Source: a virus
Virus record (IMG/VR): IMGVR_UViG_3300045988_101308
Coordinates: 60,792 to 124,791 of that record
Reading direction: 5' to 3' (one strand)
Length of the DNA: 64,000 bases
Part shown: in pieces, positions 6,967-60,850 of the stretch
Numbering within the stretch: the first letter of the stretch is position 1
How the letters are laid out: each line of letters starts with the position of its first letter
Notes under the pieces: model-generated
The model's input: only the letters and a program-made list of their open reading frames with translations
Database searches by the model: none
What the model was told of the DNA's origin: nothing
Position numbers and translations under genes: made by a program

Positions 6967-7888
6967 ATCGGATTTAGATGGCGTTGTGTCGGCAGCCATC
7001 GCAACTATGTATGAACACAGTAAAAACAAGGATGTTGTTTATATCCCGTATTCGTATGAAGATGATGTTAAGAAAGTTACCAGCAAGGTGCGTGACTTAG
7101 ATGCTGTTTATGTTCTTGACGTGTCTTTCGGAGCCGATTCTAAAACGGTTTTCAAAAAGTGGCTTGATGAAGGAAAGAGCCTGATGTGGATAGATCACCA
7201 TAAGGGAATTATTGAGGACAGTAAGACATGGGGGTTCGTAGTTCCAGGGTTGAGGAGAGTCGGCGTCGGTGCGTGCGCTCTGGCTTCGGACCTGCTTATG
7301 GGGAAGGTGCCGGCGATCGTCCGGTGCCTGTCAGACTACGATGTGTGGAATAAAGAATCTGAATTAGGTTGGGATACGGTAGTAGCTATCCAGTATGCCT
7401 TGAGATCAAAAATAAGACTCAATGTATTAATAGCATTGTCGTATTTGTATGACCATTTTAAAGAAGATATGAAGGACAATGAAATTGATCTTATTTTTTA
7501 TGATCTCGCTAAAGAAGGACGTGCTATAATTAATTACATGGCTGGTAAAAACGAACAAGAGGTAAGTGCGTATTCGTTTGAAGCTTACGTCGATGAGGTG
7601 AAGGTAGTGGCGATGAATACCACGGAATTTAGTTCTAAAGTATTTGATTCTCTTACACGAGACTGGTTAGACGGTAGAAAAATTAAAGCCCTTATGCCAT
7701 TTTGTATCATGCCAGGTGGTAAGGTTAGGTTCTCTCTTTATGAATGCGTGGAAGACAGCGCGGATTGCTGTGAAGTAAGTAAGAGATTCGGTGGTGGAGG
7801 ACATGCTGGTGCTGCTGGGTTTGTGCTTGATGTCACGGATATCAGATTCAGGGAATTTATAGAAAAACATAAACTTATATCACAATGA
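6932..7888 (+). CDS. DHH/DHHA1 phosphoesterase (NrnA-like nanoRNase, or pAp/c-di-NMP phosphodiesterase family)
   Basis: DHH motifs HKSDLDG (I), VLDVSFG (II), WIDHHKG (III, DHH); DHHA1 motif FGGGGHAGAAGF near the C-terminus. Confidence 0.75.
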   Translation: MKVKKTAIVYHKSDLDGVVSAAIATMYEHSKNKDVVYIPYSYEDDVKKVTSKVRDLDAVYVLDVSFGADSKTVFKKWLDEGKSLMWIDHHKGIIEDSKTWGFVVPGLRRVGVGACALASDLLMGKVPAIVRCLSDYDVWNKESELGWDTVVAIQYALRSKIRLNVLIALSYLYDHFKEDMKDNEIDLIFYDLAKEGRAIINYMAGKNEQEVSAYSFEAYVDEVKVVAMNTTEFSSKVFDSLTRDWLDGRKIKALMPFCIMPGGKVRFSLYECVEDSADCCEVSKRFGGGGHAGAAGFVLDVTDIRFREFIEKHKLISQ

Positions 7889-36543: not shown

Positions 36544-37110
36544 ATGGAACTTAATGAGCGCCAACAACGGGTTTTAAGAGGCGAAATTTGTCCTTATTGC
36601 GGAAGAGAAACTGAGCTGGTAAATGCCGATAAAATATATAGCAGAAAAGGCTTAGGGATGGTTATGATGTGCAAACCATGCAACGCTTATGTCGGTGTTC
36701 ATGAATCAGGGCCGAATAAGGGAAAAGCTAAAGGCCGGCTTGCGGGGCCATCACTGAGATCTCTTAAGATAAGAGTCCATGCCGAACTTGACAGACTATG
36801 GTCTACGCCGGAGGAACGGAAAAGGATGTATAAAGATTTATCTGAATTTCTCTCTATACCGGAAGAATACACACATATAGGTATGTTCGGCGAGAAGACG
36901 ATGGGAAAAATCTTTCAGTTCTGTCATGTAAACAAAGAACGATCAGGTTCGAGAATAGAATGGCATAAACCTGGAGATAAGTGCCCTAATAAAAACAATC
37001 AAATAGTGTCAGGCAGTAGCGCATGTAGAGGATGTCCTGAGTATCTTCATGATGAGAAAGACGGATATGTCTGGTGTGATCCTGATATGAGCTACGGCAG
37101 GTTGAAATAG
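36544..37110 (+). CDS. hypothetical zinc-finger protein (188 aa)
   Basis: ICPYCGRE ... CKPCNAY and a C-terminal CRGCPEYLHDEKDGYVWC. Confidence 0.4.
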   Translation: MELNERQQRVLRGEICPYCGRETELVNADKIYSRKGLGMVMMCKPCNAYVGVHESGPNKGKAKGRLAGPSLRSLKIRVHAELDRLWSTPEERKRMYKDLSEFLSIPEEYTHIGMFGEKTMGKIFQFCHVNKERSGSRIEWHKPGDKCPNKNNQIVSGSSACRGCPEYLHDEKDGYVWCDPDMSYGRLK

Positions 37111-37161
37111 GGCGCGAATTGCCTATCTTTGTGCTATTATTAATCAAAAAAATATAAGCAT

Positions 37162-37440
37162 ATGGGCAGATCAACAGAGTACTACAGGACTCATCCCGAA
37201 GCCAGGAAGAAAAAGGCTAAAAAGGACAAGGAGATAAATGCCAGACCGGAACAGAAAGCCAAACGCCGAGAGCTTGGTCGTAAAAACTACGAAACGGACA
37301 AGAAGAAGGGTAAGGGCTGGAGAAAAGGAAAGGATTGTTCTCATACCAAGAACGGTCTTAGGTATAAATCAGTAAAAGCTAATAGGGGATCCAAATCGGA
37401 TACGAAAGGTGACAAAAATGCAAGAGGATCTGAAAAATAA
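37162..37440 (+). CDS. small highly basic protein (92 aa), likely nucleic-acid binding
   Basis: Composition is more than 35% K/R. Confidence 0.4.
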   Translation: MGRSTEYYRTHPEARKKKAKKDKEINARPEQKAKRRELGRKNYETDKKKGKGWRKGKDCSHTKNGLRYKSVKANRGSKSDTKGDKNARGSEK

Positions 37441-38536
37441 AATAGATATAAGAAGGATATTCAAAACCTCTAAACAGGTTATGGAAGAGGCGTATGAGAA
37501 TATCTTGAAATACAGGCGGGGAGAGCTTATCCCCGCTAAAACCGGATACGATTATATTGATGAGGCTTTGCTTGGAGGTATTTTTCCTCAGCACGCTATT
37601 GCCATAGGAGCCCGGCCATCTGTAGGTAAATCGTATGTGGCCCAAAAGATATTGGAAAATGTGATGAATCCGATGATCAACCCGCAAGCAGAAGATTATT
37701 TTCTTGTTAATTGCGAGTTCGAAATGAATCCTCAAGATCTTCTTCTTCGCAGAATGAGCCAGGATATGAAAAAGCGAGCTCCTGAAATATTAAGAAGGCA
37801 AGATTCTAATACAGTAGAAGAGATGAGGATGTTTGAAATCCTTCAAGGTGAAATCAGGAATAATATAATATACATCGATGCTCCGTGTACGGTAAAAGAG
37901 TTTGAGGCGGCTGTGTATCATATAGCTACCAAACATAAAGACAAACGTCTTATAATATTTAAAGTCGATCATATTGCTTTGATAAAAAGAATGGGATTAG
38001 ATCCTAAGTCGGCTATAGATGATTTGGTGGCGGTTATGAATGAGGCTAAATTAGTATATAAAAACATATTTTTCCTCATCATATCCCAATTCAACAGAGA
38101 GATAGAAGGAAGGATAAAAAGTCCACAAGAGCAGCCTCCGCGTCTTTCTGATTTTTACCAATCTGATACACTGGGTCAGTTATGTACGTTAATGATAGGT
38201 TTGCATAATCCTCGTCGGTACGGGCTGGATAAGTATATGATATTTGGGAAAGATTGGTATCAGACTCTTGATAGGTTTAAAACTGAAAACAAAACATCAT
38301 TCAGGACAGCCGGACTTGTGTTTCATCATATACTGAAGGTAAGGCAAGTTAGTATGGAAGAGCTTACTAATACAATCCACCCAGAGATACTGCCGGGACA
38401 TGGATGGATGTACGGGGAGGGCGGGACGAAGTTCGTGAACCCCAACCAGCCGCCGACGCCGCCTAAGCTCTATACTGTGGAAGACGTTACGGACAATCAG
38501 GAACAAGAGACAAAAGAAGAACAGTCATTGTATTAA
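37409..38536 (+). CDS. DnaB-like replicative helicase, RecA-like C-terminal domain only (375 aa)
   Basis: Walker A GARPSVGKS; Walker B LIIFKVDHIAL; DnaB motif H4-like ISQFNREIEGR (compare SQLSR). Confidence 0.7.
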   Translation: MTKMQEDLKNKIDIRRIFKTSKQVMEEAYENILKYRRGELIPAKTGYDYIDEALLGGIFPQHAIAIGARPSVGKSYVAQKILENVMNPMINPQAEDYFLVNCEFEMNPQDLLLRRMSQDMKKRAPEILRRQDSNTVEEMRMFEILQGEIRNNIIYIDAPCTVKEFEAAVYHIATKHKDKRLIIFKVDHIALIKRMGLDPKSAIDDLVAVMNEAKLVYKNIFFLIISQFNREIEGRIKSPQEQPPRLSDFYQSDTLGQLCTLMIGLHNPRRYGLDKYMIFGKDWYQTLDRFKTENKTSFRTAGLVFHHILKVRQVSMEELTNTIHPEILPGHGWMYGEGGTKFVNPNQPPTPPKLYTVEDVTDNQEQETKEEQSLY

Positions 38537-38550
38537 AAAAAATAAGAACC

Positions 38551-39153
38551 ATGAGACTAACAGTAGAAGAAAACGAATACCTGATAAGTAAGTTCCTTTT
38601 GGTTCTTACTGAGTTTGCAGGGGATGAAAGAGAGATGTTTTTAATCAACTCCATACATGATAAGGCGGTGGCGGATATGAATTATCGTCTTCCGTCTTTA
38701 ATAAGCAGAGAACGTAAAAGACGAGTTATTGAGCTCCTTAAAGAAGGAACCAGAATAATCAAGGACTTTTCTGGCTATGCTGGTGATATGGGTATGATTA
38801 ACGAATACGATCGTCTAAAGAAAGAAATAGGAACCGTCCAAGACCAGCTTGGTGACGTAGAAGGTCAACTTCGGGCAGCAGGAGAAGTTATTAAAAAAGA
38901 ACTTGATATGATTGCTGACCGAATCAAAGAAGATCTTCTTGATCGAGAACTGGCTAAAAGTAATGCCGAGGCTGAAAGAAAAGCCAAAGTAGATCCGAGA
39001 TACGAAGTAGCTTTAGGTGATTACAAGGAAATGTTGGAAGTGATTTTTACAACCAGAAACAAGTATTCTACGGTAGATTCTGTACATGACGATCTTCGCC
39101 AGTCGGTATCTACCGGTAGAAATTCGATTATTAAAGAAGGGTACAACAGTTAA
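38551..39153 (+). CDS. hypothetical coiled-coil protein (200 aa)
   Basis: No motif; same operon as the DnaB-like gene. Confidence 0.45.
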   Translation: MRLTVEENEYLISKFLLVLTEFAGDEREMFLINSIHDKAVADMNYRLPSLISRERKRRVIELLKEGTRIIKDFSGYAGDMGMINEYDRLKKEIGTVQDQLGDVEGQLRAAGEVIKKELDMIADRIKEDLLDRELAKSNAEAERKAKVDPRYEVALGDYKEMLEVIFTTRNKYSTVDSVHDDLRQSVSTGRNSIIKEGYNS

Positions 39154-39168
39154 AAACAAGGAGGGAAT

Positions 39169-39366
39169 ATGGAAAAGAAGGAATTTAAAGTAGGAGAAGT
39201 ATTTGATGCCGGACTTGTAAGATTAAAATGTGTGGAAGGTGATACATGCGATAGGTGTATATTCGAAGATTACGATTCTTGTTCATGTACAGACATAATT
39301 GTTGGTCCATGTGGACATGTTGATAGACAAAATAACAAGAATGTTATTTTTATTAAAGCTGATTAA
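39169..39366 (+). CDS. small Cys-rich protein, paralog family member 3 (65 aa)
   Basis: GDTCDRCIFEDYDSCSCTD ... CGH parallels the CDRCIF motif of 11570..11791. Confidence 0.5.
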   Translation: MEKKEFKVGEVFDAGLVRLKCVEGDTCDRCIFEDYDSCSCTDIIVGPCGHVDRQNNKNVIFIKAD

Positions 39367-39368
39367 AA

Positions 39369-40082
39369 ATGTACATCAATTTCAGACAACTTGCAGCATC
39401 AGACATGACCCCTAATGATCTTGCTAATCTTCTTGCCATAAGACAGAAGGATACGGTTATGATCGAAGCCATGCCGGAAGAAGATGCTGGGAGGTATATA
39501 GAGCTTGGCCTGGTTGAGAAATTAAAATCAGGCGTGATGAGATTAACCAACAAAGGAACGTCTTTTGTAAATTATATAGAGACACCGGAAATGACAGACG
39601 AGGTTCTGGAAACGTTGAAGATTATGATAGGAATGTACGAATCGTATTCAAAAGACATAGGTGTCAGCAGAAAAGAAGCGGAATCCAGGTTGTGTTGGTT
39701 TATGGGTAACACCTCATTCAAGAAAGAGGTCATACTTCAGGTAACGGAATCTTATATAGCAGAGTCAGGAGATTATACAATGAGCTTATGTAACTTTATA
39801 TGGAAACCGCCTTCTCAGGCTTTTTCAGTCCATATGAACCTTAAAAACTCAAAGCTCTTCGACTTAATAGCTGAAAAATTCAAGATCGCTACCGAGCCTT
39901 ATTTGGAGTCTAAGAAGAATAAGGAAATGGATTGGTTGTTTGCCGTATCTAAATTGCCTACGCCGCCGGCTAAAGGCAATCCGGATTATTTGTTTACCGG
40001 AAGTTCTGAAACAGACAAAGAGAGATTGAAAAACATAAAAACGTATTTATTTAACAAAATTAGAAAGCAATGGAAAAAGTAG
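39369..40082 (+). CDS. hypothetical protein (237 aa), first gene of the ACP-NfeD-flotillin cluster
   Basis: Overlaps the ACP gene start by 13 nt; no motif. Confidence 0.45.
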   Translation: MYINFRQLAASDMTPNDLANLLAIRQKDTVMIEAMPEEDAGRYIELGLVEKLKSGVMRLTNKGTSFVNYIETPEMTDEVLETLKIMIGMYESYSKDIGVSRKEAESRLCWFMGNTSFKKEVILQVTESYIAESGDYTMSLCNFIWKPPSQAFSVHMNLKNSKLFDLIAEKFKIATEPYLESKKNKEMDWLFAVSKLPTPPAKGNPDYLFTGSSETDKERLKNIKTYLFNKIRKQWKK

Positions 40083-40321
40083 AAATCAGAAAGATTATAG
40101 AGGATATAATTATTACTCAGTTTCTTAATTCAGAAATGGATATAGTTCATGAAGAAGATGTGACGTTTAAAGAACTTGGATTAGATTCTCTTGATCAAAT
40201 TGAACTTGAAATGATGGTGGAACAAAAATTCAATATTGTTATTATTGATTATGATATGGAGACCATCAAAGATATGACTGATCTTGTTTACAAAACAATA
40301 ACAGAAGGATATGGGAAGTGA
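40070..40321 (+). CDS. acyl carrier protein-like (phosphopantetheine attachment motif)
   Basis: ELGLDSLDQIELEMMVEQKF matches LGxDSLDxVELVM, the ACP Ser (DSL) motif. 83 aa, acidic. Confidence 0.7.
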   Translation: MEKVEIRKIIEDIIITQFLNSEMDIVHEEDVTFKELGLDSLDQIELEMMVEQKFNIVIIDYDMETIKDMTDLVYKTITEGYGK

Positions 40322-40805
40322 TATAATTTTATGCATGGCTTTAATAGCGTCATTTGCTTTTGTTATACAGTTTTTGTTGTCGATATTAGGATCTGATCTG
40401 GATACGGATATTGACATTGACAGTGCTTCTGATTTAAGCATGTCTTTGTCGGACATCATATCATTCAAGGGCATAACACATTTCATTCTTGGATATAGCT
40501 GGACTACTTACTTTTCGGGTTCCCATTTAGTAGGGGTTGTGATAGGGTCGTTTTTCTTTATCGTTTTGTTTTACGTATATAAGTTACTTCTTAAGTTAAA
40601 GCAAGAAATGGTGTACGAATGTCCGGAAGATTTAAACGGAAGAGAAGTGGAGATAGTATTTAGATCAGGGAAGAATCATTATATGGTAAATATTTCTAAA
40701 AATGGAAGACAAGAGCAAATGAGAGTAAGATGCTTGTCTGGAAAAACCTACAAAAACGGCGACAAGGCGAATATAAAATATGAAGAAGGAGAATTAAGTA
40801 TCTAA
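40311..40805 (+). CDS. NfeD-like membrane protein (short form: N-terminal TM helices plus C-terminal beta-barrel)
   Basis: Two or three hydrophobic helices, then GREVEIVFRSGKNHYMVNI...QMRVRC (OB-like). The classic partner gene of an SPFH protein lies directly upstream of a flotillin gene. Overlaps the ACP gene stop. Confidence 0.6.
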   Translation: MGSDIILCMALIASFAFVIQFLLSILGSDLDTDIDIDSASDLSMSLSDIISFKGITHFILGYSWTTYFSGSHLVGVVIGSFFFIVLFYVYKLLLKLKQEMVYECPEDLNGREVEIVFRSGKNHYMVNISKNGRQEQMRVRCLSGKTYKNGDKANIKYEEGELSI

Positions 40806-40836
40806 TTTTTTTATCAACAATTAAATTTTAAAAGTT

Positions 40837-42537
40837 ATGACAACAATCATGTACGTGTCAGCTATCTTAGCTGTAGTGATTATTTTGACAATCATCGGAG
40901 TCTTATCAAGGTATCGTAGATGTAAGCCTAATCAGGTCTTGGTCGTTTACGGTAAGACAGGTGGGGAAAAGAAGTCGGCAAAATTATATCATGGTGGAGC
41001 GGCATTTGTCTTGCCTATTATTCAAAGCTATGATGTTTTGTCAATGGAGCCTATGCAAATAGATTGCAAGCTTACCGGTGCTTTGTCATCTCAGAATATT
41101 AGAGTAGATGTACCTACGACCATTACAGTAGCTATCAGTACAAATCCCGAAATCATGCAAAATGCGGCAGAAAGACTTTTGGGGATGAATACCGAATCTA
41201 CTGAAAATCTTATTACGGACATCGTTTACGGTCAGATGCGTTTGATTATTGCTGAAATGACAATCGAAAAACTTAATTCTGACAGGGATGAGTTTTTGGA
41301 TAAGGCGAGAAAGAACATTGATAACGAGCTTAACAAGTTAGGTCTTTACCTCCTGAACATCAACATCAGTGACATCAGAGACGAAGCCGGTTATATTATG
41401 AACCTTGGTAAGGAAGCTGAAAGTAGGGCTCTGAACGAGGCACAGGCTAATATCGAAGAACAGGAGAAGCTGGGTGCTATTAAAATTGCTGTACAGCAGA
41501 AGGAAAAAGAAACGGCTGTGGCTAATACCAAAAAAGAACAAGAGATTCAAATTGCTTGTACTGAAAAAGAAAAGGAGACAATAGTAGCTGAAACGAAGAA
41601 AGAAAAAGAAATAGCTTTAGCTTTAACCGATAAAGAGAAACAGATCGGTGTAGCTCAAGCAGATAGAGACAGGGCTGCGGTTATCGCAAAAACTTTAACC
41701 GACAAGGAATCGGCGATCGTAAGATCTAAGGCAGAACTTGAAGTAAATAAAGCCGAGGCTGAAAGAATGGAAGAAGTCGGAAAGAATAAGGCTGAAGCTG
41801 ACAAGGAAGCAGCTATAGCAATACAAGACTCTGAAGCTCAGATTAAGAAGGCTGAGGCTGAGAAAAATGCGTCTATAGGATACAACAATGCCCAGAAGGA
41901 GGTTGCTGTATCAGTATCAGAACTACAGATCATCAAAGCTCAATCAGAGAAGAAGGCCGGAGAAGAAAAAGTTAAATCGGAAGCGGCTGTAAAAACAGCA
42001 AAAGAGCTTGCCGACAAAGAAGTGGAAGAAGCTAAGGCTAAGAAAGTTCAGGCTGCGCTTAAGGCTGAAAAGATTGTGCCGGCTGAAACCCAGAAGGAAG
42101 AGGCTATCTTGCAAGCTGATGCTGAGGCAGAGAAGATCAAACGCCGGGCTGAGGCAGAAGCAGCAGCACATTTGGCAAAAGCTGAGGCGGAGGCAAAAGC
42201 TATTCAGATGAAGCTGGAGGCAGAAGCCGAAGGTAAGAAAAAATCGTTGATGGCAGAAGCCGACGGATTTAAGGCTATGGTGGAAGCAGCAGAATCCAAT
42301 CCTCAGATCGCCATCCAGTACAAGATGGTTAATCAGTGGAAAGAAATTGCCGGAGAACAGGTTAAGGCATTTGAGCACATTAACCTCGGAAATATCACGG
42401 TATTTGACGGCGGTCAGAACAGTACCGGTAATTTCCTTAACAATGTTGTCAAGACCGTCGCTCCGGCATTGGGAGTCATTGATCAGCTTCCGATTGCAGA
42501 TACTTTAAAGAAGTTAAAAGGAGATGACAAAAAATAA
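40837..42537 (+). CDS. flotillin-like SPFH/band-7 protein (FloT/YqiK-like, 566 aa) with a long Ala/Glu-rich coiled coil
   Basis: N-terminal TM helix, then an SPFH core (CKPNQVLVVYGKTGG ... GGAAFVLP ... RDEFLDKARKNIDNELNKLGLYLLNINISDIRDEAGYIMNLGK), then EA-rich repeats (AEAERMEEVGKNKAEADKEAA...). Confidence 0.8.
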   Translation: MTTIMYVSAILAVVIILTIIGVLSRYRRCKPNQVLVVYGKTGGEKKSAKLYHGGAAFVLPIIQSYDVLSMEPMQIDCKLTGALSSQNIRVDVPTTITVAISTNPEIMQNAAERLLGMNTESTENLITDIVYGQMRLIIAEMTIEKLNSDRDEFLDKARKNIDNELNKLGLYLLNINISDIRDEAGYIMNLGKEAESRALNEAQANIEEQEKLGAIKIAVQQKEKETAVANTKKEQEIQIACTEKEKETIVAETKKEKEIALALTDKEKQIGVAQADRDRAAVIAKTLTDKESAIVRSKAELEVNKAEAERMEEVGKNKAEADKEAAIAIQDSEAQIKKAEAEKNASIGYNNAQKEVAVSVSELQIIKAQSEKKAGEEKVKSEAAVKTAKELADKEVEEAKAKKVQAALKAEKIVPAETQKEEAILQADAEAEKIKRRAEAEAAAHLAKAEAEAKAIQMKLEAEAEGKKKSLMAEADGFKAMVEAAESNPQIAIQYKMVNQWKEIAGEQVKAFEHINLGNITVFDGGQNSTGNFLNNVVKTVAPALGVIDQLPIADTLKKLKGDDKK

Positions 42538-42544
42538 ATACAAT

Positions 42545-42566
42545 GGCCCAAGGTTACACTTGGGCC
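42545..42566 (+). terminator. GC hairpin after the flotillin gene (possible terminator, no clear U-tract)
   Basis: GGCCCAAG-gttaca-CTTGGGCC. Confidence 0.35.
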
Positions 42567-43056
42567 TAATTGAAGAAGCAAAAGCAGCATTCATAGATTT
42601 CCTGCCGGCAGGGACAGTGATTTTAAGTGCTTTACTAATTACGATATTTTTAACATGGATTTTGGACAAGATTTAGAACCAGAAGAACTGACCAAGCATT
42701 ATGATCAGTATTATGGAATTGATTTTGAAACAGAAGAAGAGGAGGATGAAGAGTATGACTGACGAGGAATTTGTATTGGATAATAAGAAAAGGGTTGTTG
42801 TAAGAAAAAGAATATCTTATTTAAGCAAAGGGGATAAAGTGTGGATTGTGTCTTCCGACGGGTATCTGCTACACACGGACGTGGTTAGAGCCGACCGCGG
42901 CCGATCTTATGTGGATATAGACGGTATCCTGTATTGGAAACGAGGATTGGATGGCAAGCATCGTAATCGTAATAACTACATGCAGTTTGCCATGACACCA
43001 GAAGACGGTAAGAAGTATGTCGTATATTACCCAGAAGGATTTAAAGACAATGACTT

Positions 43057-44076
43057 ATGATGGTCCCGGAAACGCATTTGCTATATAAGGAGTTTAATGG
43101 TGTGAAACGTCTTGCCATATCTTATTCCCAGATAGATACGTTTCTTACCTGTCCAATGAAATGGTATAAAACTTACGTAGAGGGCAAAAGGTCTACAGAA
43201 AAACAAGAAGCTACATCTTATGGTACGGTTATCCATAAGACACTGGAATACTTCTTTAAGAACGGAAGACAGCCTTCTGGTAAAGACCTTGGAGAAGCAA
43301 TAAGTTACTATGCTTACCAAGAAGACATACCTTGGCTATCACCGGAAAATATGATGATAGCCATGAAACAATCTGGGGAGCTTCTTGCTTGGATTGTGGA
43401 TCTGTTTAAAAAAGACGGGAATAGGTTTATGATAGCTGATAGTGATCTTAATCCCTGTGAGAAACTTATCAGACACGGCGCTATAGTTGGAGTCGAAGAA
43501 GATTTTGTGCTGCCGTACCGTCTTCCTAAGCCTGTTGATATAAATGGAGTAATTCATACTCATGTGTACATAGTAGGATCGGTAGACCTTCATCTGGCTA
43601 TAAAGAGCAAGAACGTAGTTCACCATTATGTCATAGATTGGAAATCAGGGAATAAGATTTTTGATTCTAAGAAGTTGGAAACGAATTTACAGCATCCTAT
43701 ATATTCATTTTACATCTATAGAAAATATGGTGGAGTTCTGCCAGATATGAACATCTATTTCTTTACCAGAACCAGGCAGTACCAAAAGGTTAAGATAGAT
43801 GAAGAGCGTAAAACAAAATCTATAGAAATGCTAAATGACACTTTGTCTAAAATGTATGATTTTGAAGATAATAGTGTAAAAACATTTCAAGCGTACATCC
43901 AGGGAGCAGAAGAAGCCAGGTATAGCAAGCGGCGCGCCACCCTAAGCCAGCCTGTTTCGCAAAACAAGCTACCCTGCCCGTCGGCGCTGTGTTATTATTG
44001 TGACTTTGGATTACATAACAAAAACGAATGCCCTTTCTCTTCAGATTGGGATCCGTCTAAAAAGATAAAACGATGA
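43057..44076 (+). CDS. Cas4/RecB-like PD-(D/E)xK nuclease with a C-terminal 4-Cys (Fe-S-type) cluster
   Basis: QIDTFLTCPMKWY N-terminal motif; VIDWKSGNK (hhDxK); LQHPIYSFY (QxxxY); C-terminal CPSALCYYCDFGLHNKNEC. Confidence 0.6.
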   Translation: MMVPETHLLYKEFNGVKRLAISYSQIDTFLTCPMKWYKTYVEGKRSTEKQEATSYGTVIHKTLEYFFKNGRQPSGKDLGEAISYYAYQEDIPWLSPENMMIAMKQSGELLAWIVDLFKKDGNRFMIADSDLNPCEKLIRHGAIVGVEEDFVLPYRLPKPVDINGVIHTHVYIVGSVDLHLAIKSKNVVHHYVIDWKSGNKIFDSKKLETNLQHPIYSFYIYRKYGGVLPDMNIYFFTRTRQYQKVKIDEERKTKSIEMLNDTLSKMYDFEDNSVKTFQAYIQGAEEARYSKRRATLSQPVSQNKLPCPSALCYYCDFGLHNKNECPFSSDWDPSKKIKR

Positions 44077-44948
44077 AATACGAGGATGTTCAAAAGTTAA
44101 GAACGAAATACCGGCAAGATCCGAAAGTTATAAACGTAGAATACATGAGAGACGTTGCTGTAAGATGCGGGAATTTCAAGAAAGCGTTTGAGCTTCAGGA
44201 GAAGCTGGAGGATATATGGTTCAACTATTTAAAAGGAGTGTAATGAAAGAAGATCTAATATGTGGAGTAGCGATCCTTTTGTATTTAGTTTTATTATACT
44301 TACTCACGACAGCTTTCATAAAAACAGGTAGAGCAGTAGAGCGTTATAAGATGAAGAAGAAAACTGACAAAATCAAAGTAGGTCAAAGATACGAACATAA
44401 GAGCTACTTTGAGGATCCATTTGAAAGAGGCAAGCATGTGATTAAGATATTAGACATAAAAGAAGGGTACGCTCTATATGAGTACGAAGAAAAACTATAT
44501 ATACGTTCTTCTGTGAGTCTTGAAGATATTGCTAAAATATATGTTTTAATTACTGATATAAAATAAGGGATTATGGAAAAGAAAGTCACAATCAAAGAAG
44601 GAATGGATATTTTTTACAAAAATGCAGGGAAAGATATATGGGTCTATATTGGACTTTTTGGAAATAAAGTGCTATCCATTTTAAAAAACAAAGGTGTTAT
44701 TGCATGCGAAAACGATGCTGAATATTGCGTGTTGATGGATGGAGAAGATCATTTTATAAGTATAGCAAAAGACATGAGTCACGACTATTGTTGTGAGTAC
44801 GTTGTAGAAAGAGCAGAAGCCTACAGAGACTACCCCTCCAAAGGTGCTACATGCAGTGTATGCCTGTTTGAAGATAATGAGAATAAAGCAAGGGAGATGT
44901 TGAAAGAGGCGATAATAGAACTTTCAAAAAATAATATAATAGATTGCG

Positions 44949-46370
44949 ATGGGCTTTGAACTTAGACCTTACCAAAAAGAAGCAGTAGATGCCGGGCTTA
45001 AGTTTCTTACAGGAAGATCTAAGAAGCCTGGCATAATCGTAGCCCCATGCGGATGTGGAAAGAGCCTTCTGATATCCAAGATAGCACATGAAATAAATAG
45101 ACCGACATTAGTATTACAGCCCTCAAAAGAGATTCTGGAGCAGAATTATGCAAAGGCCGTATCATTCGGTTCTAAACCTACTATATATTCTGCTTCATGT
45201 GGTATAAAGGAGCTGTCGGCTATGACTTATGCTACACTTAAAAGCATAAAGAAAGACGTAGCAAGGTTGAAAGATATAGGGATAGATACCTTATTGATAG
45301 ACGAATGTCATTCAGGATATTCTCCTGAAGAAGGTTCTGAATTTATGGAGTTTATGAACGGGTTCCCAGAGGCGAAGGTGCTGGGCTTCACCGCCACTCC
45401 CTGCCGCCTCCGAACCTACAGTTCCATGCTGGAAGGAAACTATAGCAAGCTCAATATGCTGACGAAAGACGAGCATAACTTCTTCAAGAAAATAGTTCAT
45501 GTGACTCAAATACAAGAACTAACTTCTCAAGGGTTTTGGTGTCCACTTAAGTACGAACGATGGTCGTTTGATGAATCAGCTCTGATGTTAAACAGCACCG
45601 GGGCTGAATACACCAACGAATCTATTAAAGAAAGTATTGTACGAAACGGCTTAAACAACTCTATCTACAAGCGCCTTCTTCAACTTATGAACGAACGTAA
45701 AGCCATTTTGGTTTGCATGGATTCTATCGAATCATGTAATAGAATATCAGAGTTCATGAATGCCAAGATGGGAGCTATAACCGGTGTCGTGACATCGCTA
45801 ACAACCAAAAAGAAAAGAGAACAAATCATATCCGATTTCAAAGAAGGTAAGTTGAAGGTGGTTTTTAATTATTCAACGCTTGCTACCGGATTTGACTTTC
45901 CTGAACTTGATTGTGTGATGTTTGGACGTCCAACTTTCTCATATTCAGTATATTACCAAGTGCTCGGTCGATGTGTCCGCATCCATCCTGACAAGAAAGA
46001 GGCGCTGATAGTTGATTGCTGCGACAACATGAGGCGTTTCGGTCGGATAGAAGACCTGACAATCGAGCAATTCCCTTCTAAGGGCTGGTGTATGTTTGCC
46101 GGCAATCAACTTCTGTCTAATATAAGGATGGGTGATATTATTACCAAAGACGAGATCCTTCGTCGGGCAGCCTCGCTTAAATCTGTGAATGGAGATGGTA
46201 GGAGAGAAGACGATCTTGACAGTATAATAATGTGGTTTGGAAAATATGAAGGAATTAGATTCAAGGACATACCGGTGTCGTATTTTAGGTTCTTGGCTGA
46301 GAATATGGCAGTAAAACCAGGAGACAGAAAAGAAAAGATTATCGAATATTATAATAGGATAAAAGCATGA
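44949..46370 (+). CDS. SF2 DEAD/DEAH-box-type helicase (DECH)
   Basis: Motif I APCGCGKS; motif II LLIDECH; motif III FTATPCR; motif VI YYQVLGRCVRI; preceded by a Q-motif-like PYQKEA. Confidence 0.8.
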   Translation: MGFELRPYQKEAVDAGLKFLTGRSKKPGIIVAPCGCGKSLLISKIAHEINRPTLVLQPSKEILEQNYAKAVSFGSKPTIYSASCGIKELSAMTYATLKSIKKDVARLKDIGIDTLLIDECHSGYSPEEGSEFMEFMNGFPEAKVLGFTATPCRLRTYSSMLEGNYSKLNMLTKDEHNFFKKIVHVTQIQELTSQGFWCPLKYERWSFDESALMLNSTGAEYTNESIKESIVRNGLNNSIYKRLLQLMNERKAILVCMDSIESCNRISEFMNAKMGAITGVVTSLTTKKKREQIISDFKEGKLKVVFNYSTLATGFDFPELDCVMFGRPTFSYSVYYQVLGRCVRIHPDKKEALIVDCCDNMRRFGRIEDLTIEQFPSKGWCMFAGNQLLSNIRMGDIITKDEILRRAASLKSVNGDGRREDDLDSIIMWFGKYEGIRFKDIPVSYFRFLAENMAVKPGDRKEKIIEYYNRIKA

Positions 46371-60482: not shown

Positions 60483-60850
60483 ATTATAAACATTTCTTTC
60501 AAAATACTATTTTGTATACTATATATCAATTTCATCCCATCTCTATCATATACGTCAAAAAAGGATTCACTTAAGTTCTTTGGATTTACATTCAGTTGAA
60601 TTATGCAATTACCGGTATAAACCTTAATCCCGTAATTATCAGAGTATATATCCTGCATAGTATCAAATGTCTCAATTAAATTTTCAACAAGGGCTCTGTT
60701 AAATGAAAAAGATTCTTTACCATTACCTTTAAATGTGATATGATCTAAATTAATGTTGTCAAATACATACTCTAACTGATTGCCGTCCATCATATTATAA
60801 GTGATTGACTTTTTGATTACAAATCCCATATTATTCTGTTTTTTTAGTTG

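Follow-up and report, generated by a model that had tools for sequence, protein, structure and literature searches.

A Bacteroidales-type NfeD-like/flotillin gene pair in the replication-gene block of an epsilon crAss-like gut phage

Why would a phage carry an acyl carrier protein (ACP), an NfeD-like membrane protein and a flotillin of the SPFH family in one tight run of genes? The question is raised by positions 39369–42566 of a 64,000-nt stretch of the IMG/VR virus record IMGVR_UViG_3300045988_101308 (record positions 60,792–124,791), which we call the window. An earlier reading made from the letters alone, referred to here as the sequence-only reading, had proposed that four genes, namely ORF1, the ACP gene, ORF3 and the flotillin gene, form a single operon with which the phage builds a membrane microdomain, possibly with an acylated component; a replication or assembly platform, superinfection exclusion and lysis timing were suggested as uses. 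All four ORFs are present on the + strand just as it listed them (Table 1), and the presence of a flotillin with an NfeD-like partner in a phage replication-gene block is confirmed. The single operon does not hold, as its components are not co-inherited. Comparison of related loci shows two separate units: unit A, ORF1 plus ACP, an older and phage-specific pair of the replication-gene block; and unit B, ORF3 plus flotillin, probably with a 50-aa ORF (p50) and a hairpin, a host-derived cargo module.

Among cellular proteins, the flotillin is closest to those encoded on the chromosomes of Bacteroides, Parabacteroides, Phocaeicola and Prevotellaceae. A homologue of ORF3 (30–41% identity) lies 0–200 nt upstream of the flotillin gene in the same orientation in 79 of 80 Bacteroidales chromosomes, and in none of the 80 loci does an ACP, ORF1 or p50 lie within 5 kb of the pair. 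This chromosomal operon, which in B. thetaiotaomicron, P. vulgatus, Parabacteroides and Prevotella consists of a partner of ~165 aa followed by a flotillin of ~545 aa, is the direct homologue of unit B: the two-gene order is the same, the flotillin is 66–70% identical and the partner has the same layout of transmembrane (TM) helices plus beta-barrel. It differs in ending with a canonical hairpin and T-run terminator and in having no p50, ACP or ORF1 nearby, whereas the phage copies are set apart on a long branch, have a longer, length-polymorphic coil and sit inside a block of replication genes. Homology and gene order thus show that unit B derives from a bicistronic flotillin module belonging to the chromosomal core of the Bacteroidales.

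On the phage side, the genome of csAssE-Sib (OR575929.1, 151,256 bp; human gut sample, Russia) matches window 37000–45000 over its full length at 98.1% identity. It is an epsilon crAss-like phage whose genome encodes ring and muzzle proteins, BACON-type proteins and a diversity-generating retroelement (DGR). Its annotation already names an 'acyl carrier protein' and a 'flotillin family protein', and lists ORF3 as a 'transmembrane protein'. The text of the csAssE-Sib paper (PMC11054128) makes no mention of flotillin, SPFH or ACP, and our literature search found no paper connecting flotillin to crAss-like phages.

The flotillin was found with the same neighbours in 163 IMG/VR contigs (an identity of at least 96% refers to the 80 of them that were retained) and in thousands of metagenomic sequences, on contigs of up to about 140–155 kb. 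Among deposited phages any flotillin match occurs in 11 of 50,697 records, which bears out the claim that the module is unusual in phages. In a sister lineage (L084, L085; flotillin 82% identical) and in L086, a strain of the same species whose flotillin has a deletion in the coil, we find a common order: DnaB, a 200-aa ORF, ORF1, ACP, ORF3, flotillin, a 50–52-aa ORF and a PD-(D/E)XK nuclease. ORF1 homologues lead to more distant phages. In one of these, L170, ORF1 and DnaB are each 60% identical to those of the window and ORF1 is followed by an overlapping ACP gene, but between this gene and the homologue of p119, the annotated gene next to p50, lies a DNA methylase, with two radical-SAM genes further downstream (L170 6941–9946). 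In two others, L171 and L172, ORF1 is present, and ACP and flotillin were not found in the 8–13 kb inspected. Conservation of the cluster among relatives therefore extends to synteny in the sister lineage but not to L170, whose slot holds a methylase. The division into two units follows from these two observations together, the bacterial pairs without ACP or ORF1 and the ORF1-ACP pair of L170 with a methylase in the slot. As far as these loci tell, the slot between the ACP gene and p119 (window 40311–42676, here ORF3-flotillin-p50) is a site of variable cargo.

These results bear directly on the proposal that ORF1, ACP, NfeD and flotillin form one functional operon in which the ACP gives an acyl group or component to a phage-built microdomain. 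The ACP gene and ORF3 each begin before the preceding gene has stopped, as the sequence-only reading had noted, with overlaps of 13 nt (ORF1/ACP) and 11 nt (ACP/ORF3), and the order is kept both in the lineage of the window and in its sister; between ORF3 and the flotillin gene there is a gap of 31 nt and no overlap. The attachment serine of the ACP is also kept in 87 of 88 phage loci. Besides the missing co-inheritance, however, the ACPs are 37–40% identical between lineages where the flotillins are 82% identical, in the ACP of L170 the attachment residue is Asp, ORF1 has a winged-helix fold and acyl-handling enzymes are not annotated in the genome. We consider one such operon very improbable, and nothing was found in favour of an acylated component.

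The ACP motif itself was correctly recognised. The protein exceeds the cut-off for PF00550 (PP-binding; 27.7 bits against 20.8), matches PHROG 5934 'acyl carrier protein' at 9.5e-11, has a net charge of about −13 and carries its attachment residue, the DSL serine Ser40 (nt 40187–40189), within LGLDSLD. The NCBIfam ACP models reach at best 30–37 bits, with cut-offs of 70–106, and there is no equivalog-level AcpP match. It is the fastest-evolving sizeable gene of the block (its neighbours are 76–82% identical between lineages), with 46 distinct sequences in the 88 loci, and rates are unequal within the cluster, as the non-synonymous divergence (dN) of the ACP and of the whole flotillin shows (Table 1). 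The corresponding site of L170 (6675–6938) reads LGFDDLD, which hints that the ACP-like protein may do without a prosthetic group in some lineages. The annotation of the 151-kb genome contains no phosphopantetheinyl transferase (PPTase), acyltransferase or fatty-acid synthesis (FAS) gene; a host AcpS could act on the phage ACP.

ORF1 folds as a MarR-like winged helix with additional helices and has no PPTase fold; this excludes a role as PPTase or lipid enzyme. It belongs to the conserved core of the replication block and stands outside the membrane module. We dismissed as noise a match of ORF1 to the PADLOC model LmuC (E 0.01, 13.9 bits). Other phage ACPs (PHROG 5934 and 4154, filed under 'moron, auxiliary metabolic gene') share with this one the PHROG 5934 match and the DSL serine. 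The ACP described here differs from them in being coupled to a winged-helix protein in the replication block, in evolving fast and in having lost the serine in one relative. This winged-helix/ACP pair is distinct and fast-evolving, and merits a study of its own.

The flotillin of unit B is, as had been claimed, a flotillin-type SPFH protein with a long coiled coil, since both Band_7 (PF01145; 91.4 bits, cut-off 23.6; aa 30–211, nt 40924–41469) and Flot (PF15975; 38 bits, cut-off 27; aa 450–559) exceed their Pfam cut-offs. It begins with an N-terminal membrane anchor (hydrophobic aa 5–25, then RYRRCK), and in its coiled coil (aa 212–449, nt 41470–42183), rich in Ala, Glu and Lys, hydrophobicity recurs with a period of 10.95 residues, as in a hendecad repeat; the signal exceeds the 99th percentile of shuffled sequences. 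The FloT equivalog model of NCBIfam (NF058507) gives 144.6 bits, under its cut-off of 700, and we therefore regard the protein as a member of the family and not as a FloT orthologue; its full-length identity to E. coli YqiK is 24%. The PADLOC defence models gave no meaningful match for any of the four proteins.

The identity of ORF3 as a short-form NfeD protein is confirmed in part. An AlphaFold model (5-sequence alignment; mean pLDDT 73.5, C-terminal part 82–89) has long hydrophobic helices at aa 2–25, 46–69 and 72–101, which are conserved across the family, and a five-stranded OB-type beta-barrel at aa 110–164 that resembles solved NfeD domains; the best matches of the model are NfeD C-domains. 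An acidic DxDxD loop (aa 29–44) is invariant. The TM helices, the C-terminal barrel and the adjacency to a flotillin thus stand, but no match to an NfeD hidden Markov model (HMM) accompanies them: at E ≤ 1 neither PF01957 nor YqiJ_OB (PF07290) matches ORF3, its orthologue in the sister lineage or the Bacteroidales homologue. As positive controls, YbbJ matches PF01957 (46.8 bits) and YqiJ (54 bits) matches YqiJ_N and YqiJ_OB. Of the domains expected by the sequence-only reading, Band_7, Flot and PP-binding were accordingly recovered by HMM search and NfeD (PF01957) was not.

An exhaustive profile search extends the ORF3 family to 420 cluster representatives, mostly of 160–180 aa, and 3 of 64 family members do reach PF01957, at best with 6e-5. 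A viral homologue 34% identical to ORF3 bears the UniProt name 'NfeD-like C-terminal domain-containing protein', and a profile of the beta-domain only aligns with YuaF in the PDB over the whole domain (E 0.15). By fold, architecture and gene order ORF3 therefore appears to be NfeD-like, a divergent branch outside current models. It is distinctly unlikely, in view of the modelled barrel and the place next to a flotillin, that ORF3 is instead a small membrane protein of other descent whose OB/beta-barrel is generic, and the pair a flotillin with an unknown partner, as the negative PF01957 searches would allow.

Three other matches of ORF3 or its family were rejected. The SpoIIAA match (E 0.0065; PDB E 0.11) falls in the TM/acidic-loop region and is noise, the ErbB2 match of the full-length family profile in the PDB is TM-helix noise, and the designed beta-propellers (Bagel/Cake) that top the OB-domain profile are spurious, a short repeated motif being summed over the repeats.

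The Bacteroidales flotillin partner family, although core to the order, is without a Pfam, NCBIfam or PHROG model, and our analysis flags it as unmodelled. Its invariant acidic DxDxD loop (e.g. L087 7480–7977; homologues L090–L169) lies between the first two helices.

The history of unit B can be read from its divergence. The phage flotillins are monophyletic, on a long and distinct branch; they are 82% identical to each other and 66–70% identical to those of every host genus, whereas host orthologues across genera are mostly 81–94% identical. This indicates one old capture of unit B by a single epsilon crAss-like lineage, followed by faster evolution, and no recent chimera. Synonymous divergence (dS) between the two phage lineages is saturated, while dN of the flotillin is 0.09–0.13; with the dN values of Table 1, this shows at the level of codon substitutions that unit B has been kept under strong purifying selection since its capture. 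The possibility raised beforehand, that the genes are a host-derived chimeric insertion not conserved in relatives, is right about the origin only: unit B is host-derived, but ancient and conserved in the closest lineages.

The same data dispose of the idea that the region is non-functional passenger DNA or a host/phage assembly chimera, to which the host-type pair and the dispensability shown by natural deletions (see below) might lead. The 163 IMG/VR contigs share their context with a complete genome in the public record and with metagenomic sequences in the thousands, identity to any host is 66–70% at most, and purifying selection acts across saturated synonymous divergence. We count this explanation as refuted and give it practically no credence.

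Divergence from the bacterial flotillin is uneven along the protein, with 79% identity in the SPFH core, 75–78% in the Flot domain and 49–55% in the coil. The phage flotillin might be kept close enough to that of the host to mix into host oligomers and alter or poison them, while the diverged NfeD-like partner redirects the assembly. Oligomerisation domains this close to those of the host, next to an ORF3 that is just 30–41% identical, would fit such a hijack, as would the distinct, long phage branch. Still, co-assembly is something we purely infer, and the 66–70% overall identity together with the diverged coil may prevent mixed assembly; we regard it as quite improbable.

Two metagenomic Bacteroidales flotillins, P0159 and P0169 (L087 8001–9980), carry internal tandem duplications in the SPFH region of about 90–130 aa and reach 659 and 622 aa, against the usual ~545; they are either real duplications or assembly artefacts.

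Variation within the phage population is concentrated in the coil. Among database variants of the flotillin we found 86 in-frame internal deletions, 82 of them within aa 200–485 (coiled coil), with sizes of 2–159 aa and protein lengths of 408–566 aa. Multiples of 11 residues account for 29 of the 86, with about 8 expected; such deletions preserve the hendecad register, which speaks for a retained function. TRF finds no tandem repeat in the coil DNA, and the 11-aa steps are therefore not simple slippage of identical units. The length-polymorphic region spans window 41470–42250 (aa 212–470); the SPFH and Flot domains are 99–100% identical within the species. Some coil variants recur in independent sources, such as a 481-aa form present in JGI, ENA and Logan contigs of up to 151 kb.

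Larger deletions remove most of the module. Several proteins fuse the ORF3 N-terminus in frame to the flotillin C-terminus, with varied breakpoints and loss of the SPFH domain, and we traced such fusions to independent deletions of 1.46–1.75 kb in three long, otherwise syntenic phage contigs (L175, L176 and L178; Table 1). Truncated ORF3 of 90–120 aa is also found on contigs of 57–145 kb. Junction overlaps of 0, 1 and 9 nt, the lack of a long repeat and the recurrence of one variant in several sequencing runs rule out an origin as de Bruijn-graph artefacts. Since these natural deletions occur in otherwise syntenic contigs, the module is dispensable; it is intact in the large majority of genomes.

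Table 1 Features of the locus and natural deletions, with window coordinates unless stated otherwise, and non-synonymous divergence (dN).
Feature	Position	Strand	Description	dN
ORF1	39369–40082	+	237 aa; N-terminal MarR-like winged helix and all-helical C-terminal domain	
ACP homologue	40070–40321	+	83 aa	0.56
ORF3, NfeD-like flotillin partner	40311–40805	+	164 aa	0.26
Flotillin-family protein (whole)	40837–42537	+	566 aa	0.119
Flotillin SPFH domain				0.092
Flotillin Flot domain				0.111
p50	42524–42676	+	50-aa ORF, C-terminal hydrophobic helix	0.70
GC-rich hairpin	42545–42566	+	8-bp stem, 6-nt loop	
Deletion in L175	40455–42204			
Deletion in L176	40554–42299			
Deletion in L178	5819–7281 of sister-lineage L084		mapped on L084	

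What, then, might a dispensable but selected flotillin module do for the phage? On the reading we favour, unit B would be co-expressed with the replication genes. ORF3 would enter the inner membrane through its three helices and the flotillin would be attached by its N-terminal hydrophobic anchor. By way of the hendecad coil and the Flot domain, flotillin molecules would assemble on the cytoplasmic side as a ring or cage, like the solved SPFH assemblies, and the OB domain of ORF3 would bind the SPFH protein and promote or stabilise the assembly, as proposed for QmcA-YbbJ and FloA-NfeD. The phage would in this way specify a membrane microdomain of its own, auxiliary and not essential, that may stabilise or reorganise the host inner membrane during long or persistent infection. 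Candidate clients are membrane integrity, a protease such as FtsH, or the exclusion of other phages. Insertion, oligomerisation, OB-SPFH binding and microdomain formation are carried over by analogy from the SPFH/NfeD literature; the whole, that is two units, a captured unit B and a phage-specified microdomain, is an account that we hold to be probable with moderate confidence.

The likely mechanistic model for the SPFH ring or cage is given by the QmcA-YbbJ cage (cryo-EM, Tan et al. 2024, cited via PMC13086221) and the HflK/C-FtsH cage. PMC13086221 describes the QmcA-YbbJ cage as 26 heterodimers in which the OB domain of NfeD binds the SPFH protein, and also summarises FloA-NfeD. QmcA and HflK/C belong to other SPFH subfamilies (stomatin-like and HflK/C), however, and the phage assembly here is predicted from its genes. 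In B. subtilis YuaF (NfeD2)-FloT and E. coli YqiJ-YqiK, too, the comparison has its limits: ORF3 has no PF01957 or YqiJ_N/YqiJ_OB match, the phage flotillin is no FloT orthologue and the pair is phage-borne.

Several observations weigh against our account. The searches of ORF3 against Pfam, NCBIfam, PHROG and PADLOC returned no NfeD match, and hhalign of the ORF3-family profile with the single sequences of YqiJ and YbbJ gave probabilities of 2–10%, weak and uninformative values even though the aligned segments are the right ones. The L170–L172 contigs were inspected over 12–13 kb, and a flotillin may lie elsewhere in those genomes. The ACP/ORF3 frame overlap is compatible with co-translation, so that a functional link of the ACP is possible in the lineage of the window. 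Finally, no T-run (U-tract) follows the hairpin on the + strand, and sigma-70 and Bacteroidetes TTTG...TAnnTTTG promoter motifs occur at chance level.

A regulatory or competitive role, in which an SPFH cage sequesters a host membrane machine (FtsH) or blocks the entry of competing phage DNA (superinfection exclusion), would draw on several features of the locus and the phage. HflK/C sequesters FtsH in the lysis–lysogeny decision of lambda, and SPFH proteins often work with membrane proteases, as in HflK/C-FtsH. The cargo slot holds a DNA methylase in a relative, as is typical of accessory or conflict genes, and the repeated losses and the variation in length would agree with turnover driven by conflict. 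csAssE-Sib encodes a repressor and two anti-repressors, from which a temperate or persistent lifestyle has been argued (PMC11054128). However, PADLOC gave no meaningful match for the four proteins, the protein is of the flotillin and not the HflK/C type, and its SPFH and Flot domains are under purifying, not diversifying, selection. We regard this role as unlikely.

A more elaborate possibility combines elements of these readings. The coiled coil forms the wall of SPFH cages. The geometry of a phage SPFH compartment might be tuned by hendecad or larger in-frame changes in coil length, with ORF3 and p50 directing its assembly, possibly by mixing with host flotillin; it might serve as a persistence or replication platform or in the exclusion of rivals, and be lost repeatedly where costly. 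This combination we think distinctly unlikely to be right.

Phage-encoded SPFH proteins are not new as such. SPFH ORFs of the T4-like phages 44RR, Aeh1 and RB43 have been listed since 2006 (PMC1524935), and Vibrio phage KIT04 has a 'flotillin family protein'; all four are annotations only. None of them has a C-terminal Flot domain (KIT04 matches Band_7 alone) or a recognisable NfeD-like partner, the ORF upstream in KIT04 being of 82 aa and without a match, and they are 24–31% identical to the flotillin described here. What is new here is a complete host-type NfeD-like/flotillin module on a phage, although the product names were already public.

The ACP link, from which the locus drew its exceptional look, is not supported, and the population-level coil polymorphism is an interesting extra. 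Bacterial flotillin/NfeD modules are without a clear physiological role, and here an abundant uncultured gut phage has long kept a complete copy under selection. The natural alleles, from full deletions to graded coil lengths, amount to a natural genetic system for the function and size of flotillin cages. Membrane-microdomain scaffolds would join the auxiliary functions of crAss-like phages.

The 3' end of unit B is less clear-cut. The ATG of p50 overlaps the last codons of the flotillin gene and the ORF contains the hairpin. An ORF of 50–52 aa with a C-terminal hydrophobic segment is found at the same place in all phage lineages, and p50 is annotated as a coding sequence (CDS) in OR575929.1. 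A family search with p50 gave no match, and constraint on it is weak (dN/dS about 0.8; dN in Table 1). Because GP...LG, the only residues common to both versions, are encoded by the stem, its coding status is uncertain; p50 is probably a small membrane protein of the phage module.

The hairpin begins 8 nt past the flotillin stop and has a minimum free energy (MFE) of −19.6 kcal/mol (z = −3.15). Its counterpart in L084 (about 7715–7736) shows one compensatory A-U to G-C change between diverged flanks. Canonical hairpin and T-run terminators stand at the end of many Bacteroidales flotillin loci, in the same relative position, and the phage hairpin may be a relic or modified form of the 3'-end element of the captured operon. 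The GC hairpin that had been taken to close the operon is therefore present and conserved, but it lies without a U-tract inside p50 and the gene array continues past it.

Neither does the cluster end the DnaB operon, as had been supposed. Every gene of roughly the first 52 kb of the window is on the + strand, and downstream of the cluster same-strand genes go on without a gap; since this array runs on with a PD-(D/E)XK nuclease, a helicase and others, the cluster is not at any obvious end.

A very acidic ORF of 35 aa (MDFGQDLEPEELTKHYDQYYGIDFETEEEEDEEYD; window 42655–42762) bridges p50 and p119, sharing sequence with the 3' end of the former and the annotated 5' end of the latter. Its counterparts are called as a gene in related contigs (31–36 aa), and the true start of p119 may be an internal ATG near 42755. 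Upstream, OR575929.1 lists a CDS of 251 aa (WOZ57350.1) that shares ~140 nt with the 3' end of DnaB. Read from the first ATG after DnaB, its counterpart in the window (38551–39153) has 200 aa, as it does in all metagenomic relatives.

Further observations concern the surroundings of the block. The SNF2/DEAD helicase downstream is enlarged in some relatives (L176 6882–8480; L171 9014–10837; 607 to more than 817 aa). Matches of the enlarged forms to Hom_end_hint point to the insertion of an intein or homing endonuclease. TnpB/IS605 genes adjoin the block in L084 and L171.

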